Source: a virus
Taxonomy: Duplodnaviria; Heunggongvirae; Uroviricota; Caudoviricetes
IMG/VR virus record: IMGVR_UViG_2541047944_000001
Strand: one strand, 5' to 3'
Length of the DNA stretch: 9,981 nucleotides
Positions 3,459-9,981 of the stretch are shown one piece after another. The notes under the pieces were generated by a model. That model saw nothing but the letters and a program-made list of their open reading frames with translations, made no database searches and was not told where the DNA came from. Made by a program: the position numbers and the translations under genes. Position 1 is the stretch's first letter. Each line of letters opens with the position of its first letter.

Positions 3459-3543
3459 ATGAAAATGCAAAAACCAGCCTTTTTCCGCGCCGCTCCCGCC
3501 CCGTGGCAGACCACTCCACCGGGAGGACCCGTAAAAAAGGCGG
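3459..3543. repeat. 85-bp direct repeat, copy B (84/85 identical to copy A at 924..1008), between the iteron region and the capsid operon
   Basis: Same sequence as copy A with one mismatch (C vs T at repeat position 17). Flanking sequence diverges immediately on both sides. Confidence 0.9.
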
Positions 3544-3691
3544 ATTGCTCCGGCTTCTGTTACTCGTTGCTTAAAACGGTATGTTATCCCCGTACGGATC
3601 ATCATTCCCCGCCTGTTGTTTTGGTGTGCTTCGCTGTCATAGGCTTTATCTCACAGCAGTAAATTAAAATTTTTGCGTTTTAACCCTTCAC

Positions 3692-3914
3692 CTGTTCACC
3701 TTTTGATATTTTCTCTTTTAATTCATAATGTTAAGGGGTGAACAGTTTCACAAAAACTATTCACCAACTGTTCACCACTGTTCACCCTTGAAGCTCAATA
3801 AACAATCAAAAAGGTGAACAGTGAATAGTTTGGTGAACAGTTCATAAATAACTGTTCACCCTATAATATACTGATATAAAAGATATTTATGACAGGGTGA
3901 ACAGTGGTGAACAG
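3692..3914. repeat. Iteron array: nine perfect copies of CTGTTCACC / GGTGAACAG in both orientations plus degenerate copies; putative P4-type replication origin (ori or crr-like) with an AT-rich spacer
   Basis: Forward copies at 3692, 3768, 3778, 3852; reverse copies at 3737, 3813, 3832, 3896, 3906; a degenerate ATTCACC at 3759. An AT-rich stretch at 3861..3892 could be an unwinding element. To my recollection TGTTCACC is the octamer bound by phage P4 alpha protein at ori and crr. The array lies immediately downstream of the alpha-like gene. Confidence 0.75.
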
Positions 3915-3927
3915 TTATTCCATAAGT

Positions 3928-5745
3928 TTAATTTTTGCTATCGTCATTAGTGACCGATACACATGATGGCATCCAGTCTTCTGATTCCTCCGTCAGTGTC
4001 ACGTTTGAACGCAAACCGTGCTTCGTTTTCCGTTTCATATACTCCCTGCCATATTCCGCCATTGCCCCCGGCATATCTTTACCGAAGCGCGTCAGTGTTA
4101 CAGGTTTACCAAACCCATGTGCCCTCATATAAGCCAGATAGGCATGATAGAGATACCTGCGTGGGCTGAATGGCACAATTTCAGCATTACCCACTAACAG
4201 GCCATCACACATTACCGACGCCATGAGATAGCCGCAGAAGTCCACCAGCGAATCCCCCTCTCGCTTTATCGCCAGTGCTTCTTCAGATTTCTGCTGCTCA
4301 TATAACAGGCGTCTGGCTTCGTCCTGGTCAGCAAACCGTGTAAGCAGATGGCGAATCACTACCGCCAGCTCACCTTCTATTTTTTCCGCCAGCATTGGAT
4401 CGCGTTCGTTCTCCGGTACAACTTCCGAAAAATTGAATATCACCCGACGACGTGAGATCCCCCCGCTGCGGTCACTGAATGACATGGCGTTATTGTTAAC
4501 CGCCAGCACTACTGCCGGAATACGCGTTGAGTAGGGGGCTTTGTGTTTCGGGTCAATTGCCACCTTGTCACCGCCTGTAATGGCCTTAATCCCTGCCCCA
4601 TCACCAGCGTAGCGGGTCATATCCGGCATGATAATCAGCGAAAAGCCAACCACTAACGCGCGTTCCCTTGCATCTTCCAGCGCCTTCATGCTTGCCGATA
4701 CTGTGTTGGCCTTACCCGCCAGCATGGTGCAAATCTCCGCCATCACGCTTTTACCACTTCCCCCTGGACCTGTTACCTCAATGAATAACTGCCAGTCGTA
4801 CCGGTTCGCCAGCACCATGAATAAGGCAGCCAGTACGCGATCCGCCTTGCGGTCATTCTCAGCCACCGAACGGCGTAACCACTTCCAGAAATTCGGCGCA
4901 TGTGTTGCCAGCGTTTCCCCCTCTGCTGGTGGGCTGAAAGGTAATTCACTGGCAATTAACAACCAGTCGTTTTTGTTATGCTCCCGAAAATTACCTGTTC
5001 TGGTATCAAATACCCCGTTACTGAATCCAATCAGGTTACGGGCTGTATTCCCCATTACAGGCAAACTTAACTTCATGGTATCGACCGCCGATTTAATGGC
5101 GTTCTGCGAATAGCTGATCTCCGCATCAATGAAAATCTGCGCCATAGCACGCTGTAACTCTTTATCCTGAACCGGCTCCCATACAATGCCGTTGTAATGG
5201 TGAACAGTGTCAGAGTCGGCATGAATCGCCAGTTCACCGCCATAATGTGCCAGGAGAACTTCGCCGCGTTGACTTGCTCCCATCTGGTTAAGCGCCAGTG
5301 ATGAAGCGTTATCGTCTTTTACCCGCTCTTTTTTCTTTACAGGCAGTTCAACTACCTTTTTCTTTTCCGCCAGCTCTCCCCGCTCACGTTCCAGATATTC
5401 GCGCCAGTTCTCCCGTTTCTGGCTGTGCATTCCTTCAGGATAATAATCAGCATCCCTGACACCTGCCGCTGCCAGTTTCTGCCCGATGGTATTAACAAGC
5501 CCCGGACGCAATAACCCCGCCTGGTAGAGACGCACGCGATAGCGTCCGTCCGGTACGATTTGCAGGTTGTCCAGTTCGGCAAGTTGTTGCTCTCCAAGCC
5601 AGACAGGTGGCACGTTATCGCCAGCCAGTCGCCCGTCCTGTTCCTGCCACTGCTTCGCATGTGCCCACGCATCACTACCCGCAAAAATGATGACTTCCGT
5701 CATTTTGTCACGCGGCTGGTGTTTTAAATTTGGCGCTTTTTTCAT
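3928..5745 (-). CDS. Replication initiator, P4 alpha-like primase/helicase (SF3 helicase domain with Walker A GPGGSGKS), about 605 aa
   Basis: Long ORF with Walker A motif (VTGPGGSGKSV) in the second half, typical of the P4-family phage/plasmid primase C-terminal domain. The first ATG at 5745 is preceded by GGAGAG and overlaps the stop of the upstream ORF (ATGA); the track's start at 5760 is a GTG. Adjacent TGTTCACC iterons support the call. It is shorter than P4 alpha (777 aa, from memory), so the N-terminal primase domain may be reduced or different. Confidence 0.85.
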   Translation of the reverse strand: MKKAPNLKHQPRDKMTEVIIFAGSDAWAHAKQWQEQDGRLAGDNVPPVWLGEQQLAELDNLQIVPDGRYRVRLYQAGLLRPGLVNTIGQKLAAAGVRDADYYPEGMHSQKRENWREYLERERGELAEKKKVVELPVKKKERVKDDNASSLALNQMGASQRGEVLLAHYGGELAIHADSDTVHHYNGIVWEPVQDKELQRAMAQIFIDAEISYSQNAIKSAVDTMKLSLPVMGNTARNLIGFSNGVFDTRTGNFREHNKNDWLLIASELPFSPPAEGETLATHAPNFWKWLRRSVAENDRKADRVLAALFMVLANRYDWQLFIEVTGPGGSGKSVMAEICTMLAGKANTVSASMKALEDARERALVVGFSLIIMPDMTRYAGDGAGIKAITGGDKVAIDPKHKAPYSTRIPAVVLAVNNNAMSFSDRSGGISRRRVIFNFSEVVPENERDPMLAEKIEGELAVVIRHLLTRFADQDEARRLLYEQQKSEEALAIKREGDSLVDFCGYLMASVMCDGLLVGNAEIVPFSPRRYLYHAYLAYMRAHGFGKPVTLTRFGKDMPGAMAEYGREYMKRKTKHGLRSNVTLTEESEDWMPSCVSVTNDDSKN

Positions 5746-6047: not shown

Positions 6048-6368
6048 TTATCCCCGATTTGAATCAGTATTCGCTTTCTTTATGGCATTTAATGCATCTG
6101 TGGCATTTTCAATGGTGCACCGTAACGAAATATCAAACTGCCCAAGCATTGCCAGTAACAAACCGATATTACCCATATCAATGCGCATGGCCTTTTCGTC
6201 ATAGTCCTCATTTTCTGACGCATGCCACATCAGGCTACCAATTGACGCAATACCCATTGATATATTGTCAGTAGCCCCATCCGCAGCGGAATAAACCTTT
6301 TTAGCAATATCATGCTCACAGTTAAAATGCGGATTAATCAGGTACTGGTAATTTGACATATCAGGCAT
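6048..6368 (-). CDS. Hypothetical protein (106 aa), in an operon with the HNH gene and the primase
   Basis: ATG at 6368 overlaps the HNH stop (6361..6363) by 8 nt. AT-rich. No recognisable motif. Confidence 0.5.
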   Translation of the reverse strand: MPDMSNYQYLINPHFNCEHDIAKKVYSAADGATDNISMGIASIGSLMWHASENEDYDEKAMRIDMGNIGLLLAMLGQFDISLRCTIENATDALNAIKKANTDSNRG

Positions 6369-7038
6369 GGCACACCCCCTGACGAATACGGGCGGCGAAT
6401 ACCATCACGCAGCCAGCCGGAGATTGCTGGCGTGCTTCCTGTTCGCTGGTGGCCTCAATGGTAATCACGCGCGGTTGTGCCGTGCTCAGGGCGATAAAAC
6501 GCCAGATATATTTATTCAGGTTGTGCGATTGCCCATTTCCTTCCCCGTGATTAGCAAATTTACCGTGATGCTGCTCGCGAAATTGTTTTACTACTTGTTC
6601 GGCCTCACAAATATCCGCAAATAGGCCTAGTCGATGGTTTTTTCCGTTAACACGACATTGGGCGCGCCATTTTTTATGCTGCTTACTCCAAGTAACTCCC
6701 TTGACTCCCGATGTATTATTTTTTGCCTTTAATATGTTGTATTGATTTTCTGCGCTCGTTGCTTCGCGGAGGTTAGTAATACGATTATCACTGCGTACCC
6801 CGTTGATGTGATCAATTAAATTTGTAGGCCATTTGCCATAAACATAAAGCCATGCAAGTCGGTGCGCTGCATAAAGCCTGTTTTTAACCCCAATCTGAAT
6901 ATAACCATGACTGGTAAGACACCCAGCAACACTACCATTTTTAACGTTTCTGGCTGGTGGAACTCTCCATGTAAAAACGCCTGTTTCAGGGTCGTAATGC
7001 AGGGTTTCACGTAAGTATTTTTGGGTTAGTTCAGCCAT
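6361..7038 (-). CDS. HNH endonuclease with AP2 DNA-binding domain (homing-endonuclease-like), 225 aa
   Basis: HNH_3-type motif (AHRLAWLYVYGKWPTNLIDHINGVRSDNRITNLREATSAENQYN) followed by an AP2-like domain (SGVKGVTWSKQHKKWRAQCRVNGKNHRLGLFADICEAEQVVKQFREQHHGKFA). ATG at 7038 preceded by GGAGG at 7-nt spacing. Confidence 0.8.
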   Translation of the reverse strand: MAELTQKYLRETLHYDPETGVFTWRVPPARNVKNGSVAGCLTSHGYIQIGVKNRLYAAHRLAWLYVYGKWPTNLIDHINGVRSDNRITNLREATSAENQYNILKAKNNTSGVKGVTWSKQHKKWRAQCRVNGKNHRLGLFADICEAEQVVKQFREQHHGKFANHGEGNGQSHNLNKYIWRFIALSTAQPRVITIEATSEQEARQQSPAGCVMVFAARIRQGVCHA

Positions 7039-7135
7039 GACACGCCTCCAATGTGGAGATACTGGAATAGTCAGGGTGAGTTTGGGTATGCTGTGTTCCA
7101 GCCATAATCGTTACTCCTGTTAACGGTTTGGTTAG

Positions 7136-7179
7136 ACGCCCCGTTACTGCTCCTACAGTGCGGGGCGTTGTTTTTTGTG
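7136..7179 (+). terminator. Putative intrinsic terminator in plus-strand orientation with no obvious upstream plus-strand gene
   Basis: Perfect 8-bp stem ACGCCCCG (7136..7143) / CGGGGCGT (7161..7168) with a 17-nt loop, followed by TGTTTTTTGTG. It lies in the divergent intergenic region between the HNH gene and the RHH gene. Confidence 0.45.
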
Positions 7180-7195
7180 TAATGGTAAGTACAAT

Positions 7196-7235
7196 GGTAA
7201 TTACCATGTAACTATAGTAATCAAGGGTAATTACC
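7196..7235. promoter_or_regulatory. Two copies of the perfect palindrome GGTAATTACC (within a 14-bp direct repeat GGTAATTACCATGT), candidate operator sites overlapping the RHH gene start and the divergent promoter region
   Basis: Palindromes at 7196..7205 and 7226..7235, centre-to-centre 30 bp (about three helical turns). A TATAGT -10-like hexamer (7213..7218) lies between them. The second palindrome abuts the ATG at 7236. Confidence 0.5.
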
Positions 7236-7409
7236 ATGTCAACACCATTAGAGAAACGATCGCCACCATACCAAATGCGACTACCAGAAGAATTTAGAGC
7301 GCAACTTGAGGAGGCAGCCAAGGCAGACGGCGACACCTCATTAGCTACTTGGATTAAACGAATACTCCGCAAAGAATTACAACAGCGCGGTATCGAGCCC
7401 AAAGGCTGA
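7236..7409 (+). CDS. Ribbon-helix-helix (Arc/MetJ-like) DNA-binding protein, 57 aa; candidate repressor; not in the supplied ORF track
   Basis: Translation: MSTPLEKRSPPYQMRLPEEFRAQLEEAAKADGDTSLATWIKRILRKELQQRGIEPKG. The segment YQMRLPEEFRAQLEEAAKADG...SLATWIKRIL matches the Arc-family beta-strand/helix/helix pattern. A strong terminator follows at 7504..7536, and palindromic operators sit at the start codon. Only a weak SD (AAGGG). Confidence 0.6.
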   Translation: MSTPLEKRSPPYQMRLPEEFRAQLEEAAKADGDTSLATWIKRILRKELQQRGIEPKG

Positions 7410-7550: not shown

Positions 7551-7739
7551 TTACACCGTCTGCGTTCTGCGAGTGGATGCAAGATAAGCATCGAGATCAG
7601 TGCGCATATACAGCACTTTGCGCCCCAGCTTATGAAAAGGGATTTTTACCTTGCCAGTACACGCCCAGTTAGCAAGAGTCTGGACACTTACCCCCAAATG
7701 CTCGGCAGCTTCTTTGCGGGTCATCTTTTCTAAATGCAT
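7551..7739 (-). CDS. alpA: AlpA / excisionase-family helix-turn-helix DNA-binding protein (MerR-like HTH_17), about 62 aa
   Basis: MTRKEAAEHLGVSVQTLANWACTGKVKIPFHKLGRKVLYMRTDLDAYL is a typical excisionase/AlpA winged-HTH. The ATG at 7739 has GGTGA 5 nt upstream; the track's start at 7748 is a GTG. Position between integrase and replication genes is typical of P4-like and PICI elements. Symbol given by family resemblance only. Confidence 0.7.
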   Translation of the reverse strand: MHLEKMTRKEAAEHLGVSVQTLANWACTGKVKIPFHKLGRKVLYMRTDLDAYLASTRRTQTV

Positions 7740-7811
7740 GAGTATCACCGTATACTTCTGATTAAGAACAGGTATACGTTATTTAGCGATGGGGAAGTCT
7801 TGAAGACAGGA

Positions 7812-7841
7812 AAACCAGATACAAAATCGCATATCTGGTTT
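7812..7841. promoter_or_regulatory. Perfect 10-bp inverted repeat AAACCAGATA-N10-TATCTGGTTT upstream of the AlpA-like gene, followed by two CTGGATT direct repeats at 20-bp spacing; candidate operator or recombinase arm-type sites
   Basis: Arms at 7812..7821 and 7832..7841. CTGGTTT at 7835 and CTGGATT at 7855 and 7875, each 20 bp apart. About 70-100 bp upstream of the alpA start. Confidence 0.35.
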
Positions 7842-7880
7842 ACATGGCTGAAATCTGGATTACAGAGGATAAAACTGGAT

Positions 7881-8567
7881 TTATTCTTTGTCTCCAATAA
7901 CTAACTTAAAATCCCTGTTTTTTTGCGGGGATTTTGGATTCATCCCCGACTCCTTAAGCCATCTCTCTATAGTCCCAACTACAGGGACATCATTCCATTT
8001 ATTGCGTAAGTGCGCGTATATCTCTGCGGATAGCCCGGGTAAACTGGCATTAGGGTATTTTTTCCAAGTGTTACAAGCTATAGATAACGCTGTTGATTTA
8101 TGCCTGTTTGTTTTTCCTTTCTTTGCTTTACTACGGTCTTCACTGATAATTTTCTTTACATTAGCTATATCACGTACTGATTTTAATAAATTCTCCGACA
8201 CTAAAATCGCATATCTTTCACGTAACTGATCTGCAAGTCTGTTGAAACCAAGAACTTCAAATATAATGGCAGCTTTCAAAATATCATTGAATTCTGAATA
8301 TGCACTATTAAATTTTTTATCAAAATCATCTCCATACCCGGCACATACAGAAATATTAACCTTTAAATCCTTATTTTCTATCTCTGACGATAATGATAAT
8401 CTCTCCTCCAGAGACATTTTAGATGGTGTGATATTTGCCATATCGCATATCGTTTTTTTTACAAAAGAAGACGCCAGTTCATATCTAATATAATCTGCAA
8501 TAGTATTCATATCCTTCGCATCATTATGGTCAAATTCTATTGCAGCAATGATTTTATTTTCTGACAT
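7881..8567 (-). CDS. Hypothetical protein (228 aa), AT-rich cargo gene immediately downstream of and overlapping the integrase gene
   Basis: ATG at 8567 preceded by GGTGG; overlaps the integrase stop by 14 nt. By eye roughly 35% GC against roughly 50% for neighbours. No recognisable catalytic motif. Confidence 0.7.
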   Translation of the reverse strand: MSENKIIAAIEFDHNDAKDMNTIADYIRYELASSFVKKTICDMANITPSKMSLEERLSLSSEIENKDLKVNISVCAGYGDDFDKKFNSAYSEFNDILKAAIIFEVLGFNRLADQLRERYAILVSENLLKSVRDIANVKKIISEDRSKAKKGKTNRHKSTALSIACNTWKKYPNASLPGLSAEIYAHLRNKWNDVPVVGTIERWLKESGMNPKSPQKNRDFKLVIGDKE

Positions 8568-9981
8568 TCAAACCACCATTTGAATTAACGATACTAAATA
8601 GTAATGCGCGTTTCTCACTGTCACTCATACTCTCCAGTGCGGAAAGCAATTGCGCATCGATAGATTTTTTACTCTCCACCAGCCCGGCATGTTCCAGAAT
8701 TGCCCGTTCTATCCGTGACGCTGGCTCCAGCAGTTCATCAGCACCAAAATGTAAATACCCCTGCGTTACGTCAGCACTTCGCATAGTACGGTGATTCATC
8801 AGGCGCTTGAGGATGTAATTGCCCACGCCCACCAGTTCGGCAACCGTTCCGAACGTCCGGCGTGCATCGTGCCATTTGAATGGTACAGGGGAGAGCATTT
8901 CATCGTTCGACTCTGGAACAGTAGCCGCGCTTATCCGGTCTATGATGTGCCGTGTTTCCTGAATCACTCCCTTCACACCAGGAAACACCAGAACATCATC
9001 AGCGTTTTTTATTTTCAGTCGGCGGTGGAACATTTCCCGCAACGTATCAGTAATCGGTAATTCGAGCGGATCCCCGTTTTTCGTGGTGTCTATCCAGAAA
9101 AAACGACCGCCCATATTCACGCGATCCCACGTAAGGCCAAAAATTTCTGATTTCCTCAGTCCGGTAAAAAGCGCCATTTCCACGGCATCGCATACCGTCA
9201 CCGCTATATCATCCCTTTCCTGTTCGCCCTGGTCGCGCACAGCAGCTACAGCAGCAAACCAGCGGGGAAAATCATGCAGGCGGATACGTTCCGTTTTTCT
9301 TACCGTTCCGTGCCACTGGCGCTTGGTGCTCAGTACCAGAGTCGGCGGATCCGGTAAAAGAGTATTACCCGCATCATCACGGTAATGATCATGCGCAAAC
9401 CGACACACAGCACGTAGCGCACGCGCCCATAAATCGGCCTGTGCCTTGCTTCCTGTACCAACCCCAGCCCGTAACGTGGTTTTATCAGCACCGAACCATA
9501 CAGCCCCATCAGTGATGGCCTTATGCCGTTGTTCCACCCGTTCGCGGGAAATACTGGCGAGGGTATGGGCCATCCAGTCACCGGAATAATTCTGTAATAT
9601 GCTGCGGTACTGTTTTTCTGTGGCGGGTTTCAGGCGGTGGCCACGATTTTTTACGTAGGCGTCAATCGCCTCACTCAGCGTTATCATGGCCTTGTTGTTA
9701 GTGCGCTTTGCTATGTTCGGATTTATCCCCGTTGTGGCGACTTCGCCAAGGAGTTCCATAGCTTTAGCCCGGGCATTATCCACGCTCAGATCAGGAAAAC
9801 GCCCCAGCGTTGCACGAATAAATTTTCCGTTACGCTTACGGGAAATGCAGAAACTTTTCACACCAGACGAACCTACACGGACACGCAGCCCGTTAACCTC
9901 CGTATCACCATATTCGACCTGTCCATGTTCCGGCGTTGGCAGTTCTGCAATTTTTACTTTAGAGAATCTGAATAATTTCAC
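8554..9981 (-). CDS. int: Tyrosine recombinase / integrase, P4-type (N-terminal arm-binding domain plus C-terminal catalytic domain); 5' end at the window edge
   Basis: N-terminus (...GLRVRVGSSGVKSFCISRKRNGKFIRATLGRFPDLSVDNARAKA...) matches the P4-integrase arm-binding domain pattern. The C-terminus carries a catalytic-type HxxR motif (WHDARRTF) and a candidate Tyr (QGYLH). The ORF reaches position 9981 with a GTG as its first codon, so the true start may be here or just beyond the window. Confidence 0.9.
   Translation of the reverse strand: MKLFRFSKVKIAELPTPEHGQVEYGDTEVNGLRVRVGSSGVKSFCISRKRNGKFIRATLGRFPDLSVDNARAKAMELLGEVATTGINPNIAKRTNNKAMITLSEAIDAYVKNRGHRLKPATEKQYRSILQNYSGDWMAHTLASISRERVEQRHKAITDGAVWFGADKTTLRAGVGTGSKAQADLWARALRAVCRFAHDHYRDDAGNTLLPDPPTLVLSTKRQWHGTVRKTERIRLHDFPRWFAAVAAVRDQGEQERDDIAVTVCDAVEMALFTGLRKSEIFGLTWDRVNMGGRFFWIDTTKNGDPLELPITDTLREMFHRRLKIKNADDVLVFPGVKGVIQETRHIIDRISAATVPESNDEMLSPVPFKWHDARRTFGTVAELVGVGNYILKRLMNHRTMRSADVTQGYLHFGADELLEPASRIERAILEHAGLVESKKSIDAQLLSALESMSDSEKRALLFSIVNSNGGLNVRK

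Follow-up and report, generated by a model that had tools for sequence, protein, structure and literature searches.

ORF228, a candidate modular regulator encoded between the integrase and AlpA-like genes of a tRNA-Ile2-type phage satellite

Introduction

In characterised Gram-negative PICIs, activation of alpA starts the whole of the induced cycle (PMC6092414; PMC11773190). AlpA is the only activator known in these satellites; the literature describes a global repressor as 'unclear' and the helper inducer of alpA as not yet identified (PMC6092414). The divergent module of Stl binds different helper-phage proteins (PMC6092414; PMC9638917). PICIs of the tRNA-Ile2 type carry a CLP_protease gene and a distinctive integrase, and have no match to Phage_AlpA (PMC10111431).

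The window analysed here is a stretch of 9,981 nucleotides (IMG/VR record IMGVR_UViG_2541047944_000001), in which a gene of 228 codons, ORF228, lies between an integrase gene and an AlpA-like gene. We take ORF228 to represent a new family of modular proteins, probably regulators, which is core to one PICI lineage. The family is a concrete candidate for the helper-sensing switch of Gram-negative PICIs.

Genetic organization of the satellite

All of the major genes of the window lie on the minus strand, the exception being a small divergent ORF at 7236-7409 on the plus strand. The order along the direction of transcription is int, ORF228, an AlpA-like HTH_17 gene, the divergent Arc/YlcI-like ORF (+) and an HNH/Icd-like ORF, followed by phrog_15327, DUF4222, a D5-type primase, a fusion of a ClpP protease to a major capsid protein, and a DUF1441 protein. 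The tyrosine integrase gene (8554-9981, minus strand; 475 aa) has Pfam Arm-DNA-bind_3 and Phage_integrase domains; it is situated upstream of ORF228, which it overlaps. The AlpA-like gene (7551-7748, minus strand) matches Pfam HTH_17 with an E-value of 1.3e-12, its likely start being the ATG at 7739, and is presumed to be the target of regulation by ORF228.

In related loci, a 3' fragment of tRNA-Ile2, representing att, is found some 200 nt upstream of the int start. The window displays the features of a tRNA-Ile2-type Gram-negative PICI, namely an inward-facing integrase beside a tRNA-Ile2 att, an HTH_17 rather than a Phage_AlpA gene, a CLP_protease–capsid gene and a primase, and it is a satellite of this type. 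The first-pass annotation had referred to P4-like satellites and PICIs together. The element is not P4-like: it has the ClpP–capsid fusion, the D5 primase and the DUF1441 protein, and in a Pfam scan of the window's major ORFs psu, delta and sid were not seen. P4-type CI RNA immunity was likewise ruled out, there being no match to the C4/isrK immunity RNA in Rfam. In E. coli 1EC213, the int–ORF228–HTH_17 block is located between tRNA-Ile (ileX) and nfeF, where it is joined to other replication and capsid modules.

Several other features of the satellite and its relatives were recorded. In two related loci (L001, 16383-16662, and L014, 4034-4400), upstream of int and outside the window, GGATACC and AAGTATC repeats come before the tRNA-Ile2 3' fragment (…GGTTCAAGTCCAGCAGGGGCCACCA); fragment and repeats probably correspond to the att core and integrase arm-type sites. 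Directly downstream of the primase stop codon, at 3714-3929, is a cluster of GGTGAACAG/TGTTCACC repeats in a long inverted arrangement, which is probably the satellite replication origin. A 94-nt direct repeat with 95% identity (924-1017 and 3459-3552) brackets the capsid–protease module, and could be either a regulatory element present in duplicate or the scar of a recombination event. The HNH ORF (6361-7038, minus strand; 225 aa) combines an HNH_3/AP2 homing-endonuclease-like N-terminal part (phrog_99, 9e-78) with an Icd-like/phrog_6196 C-terminal part. About 860 bp (6529-7388) are without counterpart in four related E. coli islands, and the best whole-window matches in E. coli reach only 91% coverage; from these alignments, the 6529-7388 region looks like an HNH endonuclease insertion particular to the window's island variant. 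The ORF at 7236-7409 (+), between the AlpA-like and Icd-like genes, has weak Arc-like and YlcI/YnfO similarity and terminator-like hairpins on its flanks, and could encode a second island regulator.

In E. coli A33 (NZ_CP028742.1), five separate places match the int–ORF228 block while E. coli has two tRNA-Ile2 genes only; these could be tandem arrays or secondary sites. Two islands bearing the int–slot–HTH_17 block with the Klebsiella-type protein P0044 adjoin prophage genes, in one case P2-like tail genes and ogr (L005) and in the other a lysis/terminase cluster (L006), which hints at integration beside or within prophages.

The ORF228 gene

ORF228 occupies 7881-8567 on the minus strand, from an ATG at 8567-8565 to a TAA at 7883-7881. 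The ATG falls within the integrase ORF, which ends at 8554, so that the two genes overlap by 14 nt, and an SD-like GGTGG is found 5 nt 5' of it. Presumably int and ORF228 form one operon. The arrangement of the two genes is maintained across the family, in which the start overlaps the int stop by 4, 8, 14 or 29 nt, with a 2-nt gap in a single case.

The base composition of the gene sets it apart. Its GC content is 0.344, where int has 0.508, the alpA-like gene 0.485 and the whole window 0.471; its GC3 of 0.293 compares with 0.489 in int and 0.515 in the alpA-like gene. Within ORF228 the GC content is 0.312 in the N-terminal part and 0.392 in the C-terminal part.

A search of a collection of 5.8 billion proteins returned 86 homologues at E<=1e-3, of which those with names are without exception 'hypothetical' and from Enterobacterales. 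Clustered at 50% identity, the superfamily is small, with 155 clusters in a set of 1.84 billion representatives, and just three loci were found in the species-representative genomes scanned. In a stretch of 65 codons of the C-terminal domain, the window and Klebsiella sequences differ by 30 synonymous and 21 non-synonymous codon changes. On these comparisons ORF228 is a genuine gene.

ORF228 has no match in Pfam, NCBIfam, PHROGs or PADLOC, the last even at E<=1, and the same family scans with ten distant relatives were also without a match. The family gave no tblastn match in 50,697 phage genomes, and no description of it was found in the literature. The first-pass annotation had reported the 14-nt overlap, the markedly low GC content and the lack of a recognizable motif; the coordinates, the base composition (0.34 against about 0.50 in the neighbours) and the four blank databases bear out each of these. 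Its further proposal, that ORF228 is translationally coupled to int, is made plausible by the overlap and the SD-like sequence.

Domain architecture of ORF228

The protein is composed of two modules. The N-terminal module (aa 1-138; 8154-8567, minus strand) is acidic, all-helical, hypervariable and swappable. The C-terminal module (aa 139-228; 7881-8153, minus strand) consists of a basic arm, KAKKGKTNRH, and a three-helix domain which is predicted to be winged-helix-like. In alignments, the signature of the C-domain is the basic arm together with TW-x-KYP-x-AS ... W-[LI]-K ... P ... F-x-LV; the domain is preceded by a long helix, and this in turn by the hypervariable N-terminal part.

The two modules have very different conservation. 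Within the window's class the mean pairwise identity is 19% for aa 1-90, 28% for aa 91-138 and 65% for aa 139-228, residues ~91-138 being a helical and slightly more conserved portion of the N-module. One class of C-domain carries N-terminal parts from six or more clusters, among which no similarity could be detected. The reverse mix is seen in the protein P0098, where an N-module resembling that of the window is joined to a C-domain like those of class II. The modules also differ in charge. The N-terminal part has a pI of 4.4-6.3 in nine of ten alleles (4.8 in the window) and of 8.5 in the other, from L015, while the C-terminal part is strongly basic, with a pI of 9.4-10.1 and a net charge of +3 to +11.

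An AlphaFold2 model of ORF228 is all-helical with a mean pLDDT of 79, and its C-terminal helices, at 157-170, 176-190 and 197-206, have a pLDDT around 90. The fold of the C-terminal domain is predicted to be winged-helix-like, though the evidence for the fold is weak. Scans of the C-domains at E<=10 produced only the sub-threshold matches HTH_Tnp_Tc3_2 (0.082) and HTH_WhiA (0.011). A PDB sequence-profile search with ORF228 gave nothing below E=1.9, and Foldseek gave no significant match against the PDB.

Occupancy of the slot between int and the AlpA-like gene

Carriers of the integrase were counted at a threshold of at least 95% identity among 5,426 complete E. coli genomes, giving 85 genomes. 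The slot between int and the AlpA-like gene is held by the window-type allele in 54 of these, by a 238-aa allele in 24, by a 206-aa allele in three and by a 266-aa allele in four, which together make up the entire 85. All four alleles align across their C-terminal ~90 residues. Homologues traced to contigs with flanking sequence always lie between an integrase of ~470-487 aa with the same architecture and an HTH_17 gene, the int–slot–HTH_17 loci sampled being from Klebsiella-type, E. coli, Salmonella, Pectobacterium and Rouxiella sources and from one metagenomic contig. A very distant member of 323 aa is followed by a Phage_AlpA gene, on a short contig which has no upstream flank. Judged by this pattern of occupancy, ORF228 is probably a core gene of one E. 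coli phage-satellite lineage rather than interchangeable cargo.

These observations bear directly on the suggestion that ORF228 is anti-phage or interference cargo, for example a single-gene Abi or exclusion protein, whose N-module would target phage proteins and whose HTH would serve for autoregulation only. The slot always holds the same superfamily, and for this reason a defence hotspot is disfavoured; no unrelated gene was seen there in the 85 E. coli islands, nor in any other genus that was sampled. The protein lacks a PADLOC match as well as any domain of an enzymatic, toxin or membrane kind. The element is not of the P4 type, and the array of sites described below faces the alpA-like gene and not ORF228's own promoter. 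We consider a role as defence cargo very unlikely, though the variable N-module may have some side-function in defence or interference. The first-pass annotation had proposed accessory or defence cargo as a candidate function, integrase-proximal positions being hotspots for such genes. Given the lack of a PADLOC match, the lack of an enzymatic or toxin-like domain and the core-like occupancy, this interpretation is largely unsupported: every island examined with the window's integrase holds the one superfamily, and comparison across related islands finds the slot gene to be essentially core in all of them. Were ORF228 defence cargo after all, it would constitute a new single-gene system with an unusual architecture.

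A phased repeat array downstream of ORF228

Directly after the ORF228 stop codon is an array of four AWCCAGWT sites with an exact spacing of 20 bp (7813-7880, minus strand). Three of the sites (7880-7873, 7860-7853 and 7840-7833) read directly along the minus strand; the fourth (7813-7820) is inverted and combines with site 3 into the inverted repeat AACCAGATA-N-TATCTGGTT. In the window as a whole AWCCAGWT has eight matches against an expected 1.34, and none of 200 shuffles reached eight. The array ends ~70 nt upstream of the alpA ATG.

The repeats fall into three classes, each with its own class of C-domain. C-domains of class I are paired with AACCAGAT/ATCTGGTT repeats. In an alignment of eight class I loci from at least five genera (E. 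coli, two Pectobacterium, one Klebsiella-type, two Salmonella, one Rouxiella and one MAG), the blocks AACCAGA-A and T--CTGGTT are invariant and the upstream AATC-AG copies largely conserved, while the spacers diverge. In class II, that of the E. coli 238-aa allele, four TAGCTGGCTA-like direct repeats are in exact 21-bp phase, and between strains the spacers differ while the repeats are kept. In class III, that of the 206-aa allele, the repeats are AGCCAGGG, CCCTGGCT and CCCTGGGA, at ~20 bp. The class of the C-domain predicts the class of repeat in all 19 of the 19 loci which can be assigned to the three classes, a co-inheritance which is partly mere linkage, the two being adjacent and the independent swap events sampled being few. 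Clear phased repeats were not seen at one class II-like locus, L021. A CCAG/CTGG core is common to the three repeat classes, which would agree with recognition domains that are homologous but have come to differ in specificity.

The class I inverted repeat can also fold as an RNA hairpin, with a predicted free energy of -14.5 to -18.5 kcal/mol, which is followed by a U-rich tract; it could be a weak terminator instead of, or besides, an operator. Taken further, the array might comprise a terminator and sequence that is there by chance or linkage, with ORF228 having a role other than DNA binding. The hairpin and U-rich tract are what such a terminator would look like, and adjacency alone accounts for the co-inheritance of C-domain and repeats. 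Against this, the phasing at 20 or 21 bp is exact, with three to four copies, and recurs in three different classes. The direct-repeat copies cannot pair, and it is sequence, not just pairing, which is conserved across genera; furthermore, the neighbouring C-domain is basic and HTH-like. Little probability therefore attaches to a terminator as the whole explanation.

A second inverted repeat, CGTATAC-N16-GTATACG (7749-7778, minus strand), lies over the RBS and start of the alpA-like gene. Its place is taken by TATCACC-N19-GGTGATA in loci of Klebsiella, Salmonella and Pectobacterium and in those of class II from E. coli. This proximal repeat may be a site of AlpA autoregulation or a hairpin which sequesters the SD sequence.

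Cassette exchange

Comparison of the alleles by blastn reveals what is exchanged between islands. The 238-aa allele has no homology to window positions 7683-8587, the ORF, the repeats and the first codons of the HTH gene all being replaced. The 206-aa allele has none to 7732-8601, ORF and repeats being replaced, and in the 266-aa allele (L017) the non-homologous segment is 8154-8578, such that the N-module alone is replaced. On either side of every swap int and the alpA-like gene are 94-97% identical. The breakpoints are located either at the junction of the N- and C-modules or outside the unit formed by the C-domain and the repeats; none falls between C-domain and repeats. The separate acquisition proposed in the first-pass annotation is thus real in the form of cassette exchange, in which the N-domain alone, or the ORF with its repeats, is swapped between near-identical neighbours.

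The neighbouring genes do not vary in this manner. The AlpA-like proteins are nearly identical across loci: only the N-terminal ~25 residues show differences, and the HTH region is for the most part unchanged. Each of their two N-terminal alleles is found together with more than one repeat class. Upstream of int, the segment which contains the tRNA fragment and arm-like repeats does not differ between the two slot classes compared, apart from one mismatch in the tRNA fragment.

Other owners for the repeats were considered. Because Int and AlpA are near-constant while the repeats change, the repeats are not Int arm sites or AlpA sites: they lie about 2.3 kb from att, Int and the arm regions are identical across repeat classes, and AlpA, as a candidate for autoregulation through these sites, is nearly invariant. 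Replication iterons were also ruled out, since a separate TGTTCACC iteron cluster exists downstream of the primase.

A related suggestion is that ORF228 is itself an accessory or architectural factor for the integrase, acting as a recombination directionality factor or as a partner of the C-terminal extension of this integrase clade. ORF228 is strictly tied to one integrase clade and is plausibly coupled to it in translation. Factors of the lambda Xis type are winged-helix proteins which bind phased direct repeats, and so provide a precedent. The repeats of the satellite are however far beyond any att arm at about 2.3 kb, the arm-like repeats near att are the same between classes while the repeats linked to ORF228 differ, and an HTH_17 excisionase-type gene is already present. 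An integrase factor of this kind seems to us decidedly improbable.

A proposed role in satellite control

The reading we put forward is that ORF228 is the satellite's own sequence-specific DNA-binding regulator, which forms a cassette with its operators, represses the alpA-like gene and senses the helper through its N-module. We give this combined proposal about an even chance of being correct; within it, we infer the binding of ORF228 to the array, the sign of the regulation and the sensing of a helper. ORF228 would be produced from the integrase transcript, and its basic, winged-helix-like C-domain would bind the four 20-bp-phased AWCCAGWT sites ahead of the alpA-like gene. Repression is the most likely mode: bound ORF228 would block read-through from the int operon, a weak alpA promoter, or both, and the island would be kept quiescent. 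The acidic, swappable N-module would mediate oligomerisation and act as the sensor, being engaged by a helper-phage protein so as to release repression. Derepression by a helper protein is suggested only by the hypervariability and shuffling of the N-module sequences.

Repression is favoured because ORF228 is co-expressed with int, and because the array, which begins at the stop codon, contains an inverted repeat capable of forming a hairpin, so that bound ORF228 could block read-through and a weak promoter alike. A further reason is that the interval from ORF228 to the alpA-like gene yielded no consensus sigma-70 promoter. The same finding makes a repressor and an activator indistinguishable, and the opposite sign has accordingly to be weighed. 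ORF228 could be a helper-responsive activator or anti-terminator, acting at the phased sites just ahead of a weak promoter to switch on the alpA-like gene. Sites ending ~70 nt upstream of the alpA ATG are suited to class I/II activation, a consensus promoter near them was not detected, and Gram-negative PICIs are switched on via activation of alpA (PMC6092414). However, co-expression with int would imply, by analogy with EcCICFT073, a constitutive or lysogenic operon, and an ever-present activator would need some further signal; an array which runs from the stop codon and contains a hairpin-forming inverted repeat is better suited to roadblock or termination control. Activation is in our view unlikely.

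It is attractive to consider a wider role, which we regard as possible but rather doubtful, in which the ORF228 family are the missing master repressors of this Gram-negative PICI lineage, the C-module and array conferring 'immunity' specificity and each N-module answering to a different helper protein. If this were so, exchanging the ~400-bp N-module would redirect the satellite towards another helper, and the inducers which helpers encode would be revealed directly through the family. Should the proposal put forward above be right, pull-downs with N-modules would offer a way of finding such inducers, and the family would help in predicting satellite–helper pairings from sequence and in building orthogonal pairs of regulators and operators.

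Comparison with known systems

Two genes in comparable positions are set apart from ORF228. YfjH, located between intA and alpA in the CP4-57 element of K-12, shows no relationship that could be detected (hhalign probability 0.3%; BLASTP E>2). The small ORF EcCIMP1_002, which in EcCIMP1 separates int from alpA, encodes according to its published description a different and much smaller protein.

The defence hotspot of P4, which lies between int and psu-delta-sid, resembles the ORF228 slot in being an int-proximal site for an AT-rich, variable gene in an enterobacterial satellite (PMC13586616). The ORF228 slot, by contrast, lies between int and an AlpA-like gene and holds one superfamily with no match to a defence model, and psu, sid and delta are absent. 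AlpA, Vis and Xis (HTH_17, Phage_AlpA) are HTH-type DNA-binding proteins encoded in the 'integration zone' of Gram-negative PICIs (PMC10111431), as ORF228 is predicted to be. ORF228 differs from them in that it is three times larger, has two modules and lacks a match to HTH_17 or Phage_AlpA, the true HTH_17 gene being its downstream neighbour. Nor does it resemble an excisionase or RDF, a small winged-helix protein with sites in the att arms, having 228 aa and sites ~2.3 kb from the att fragment.

Closer parallels can be drawn with the immunity cassettes of phages, such as the lambdoid imm regions and the repressor–int operons of P2/186. In these, as in ORF228, a specificity module and its sites are swapped together between near-identical flanks, and in the P2/186-type cassettes the regulator is likewise co-transcribed with int. 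The cassettes nevertheless belong to another protein family and fold context, and have compact palindromic operators in place of 8-10-bp repeats phased at 20-21 bp. Furthermore, ORF228 has an additional breakpoint inside the gene, which allows its N-module to be swapped independently.

Stl/Rpr, of the SaPIs and Gram-positive PICIs, are like ORF228 in being satellite-encoded, transcribed with int and positioned just before the gene which starts the satellite cycle (PMC6092414), and in combining a DNA-binding module, putative in the case of ORF228, with a highly divergent one. There is no sequence relationship between them, and ORF228 has no match to HTH_3 or any other Pfam family. The HTH of Stl is N-terminal and of the XRE type, whereas the predicted HTH of ORF228 is C-terminal and winged-helix-like; and stl and str are laid out divergently, while ORF228 is downstream of int and co-directional with its alpA-like target. 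Despite this, ORF228 may be regarded as functionally analogous to Stl/Rpr, with putative roles in repression and in the sensing of the helper.
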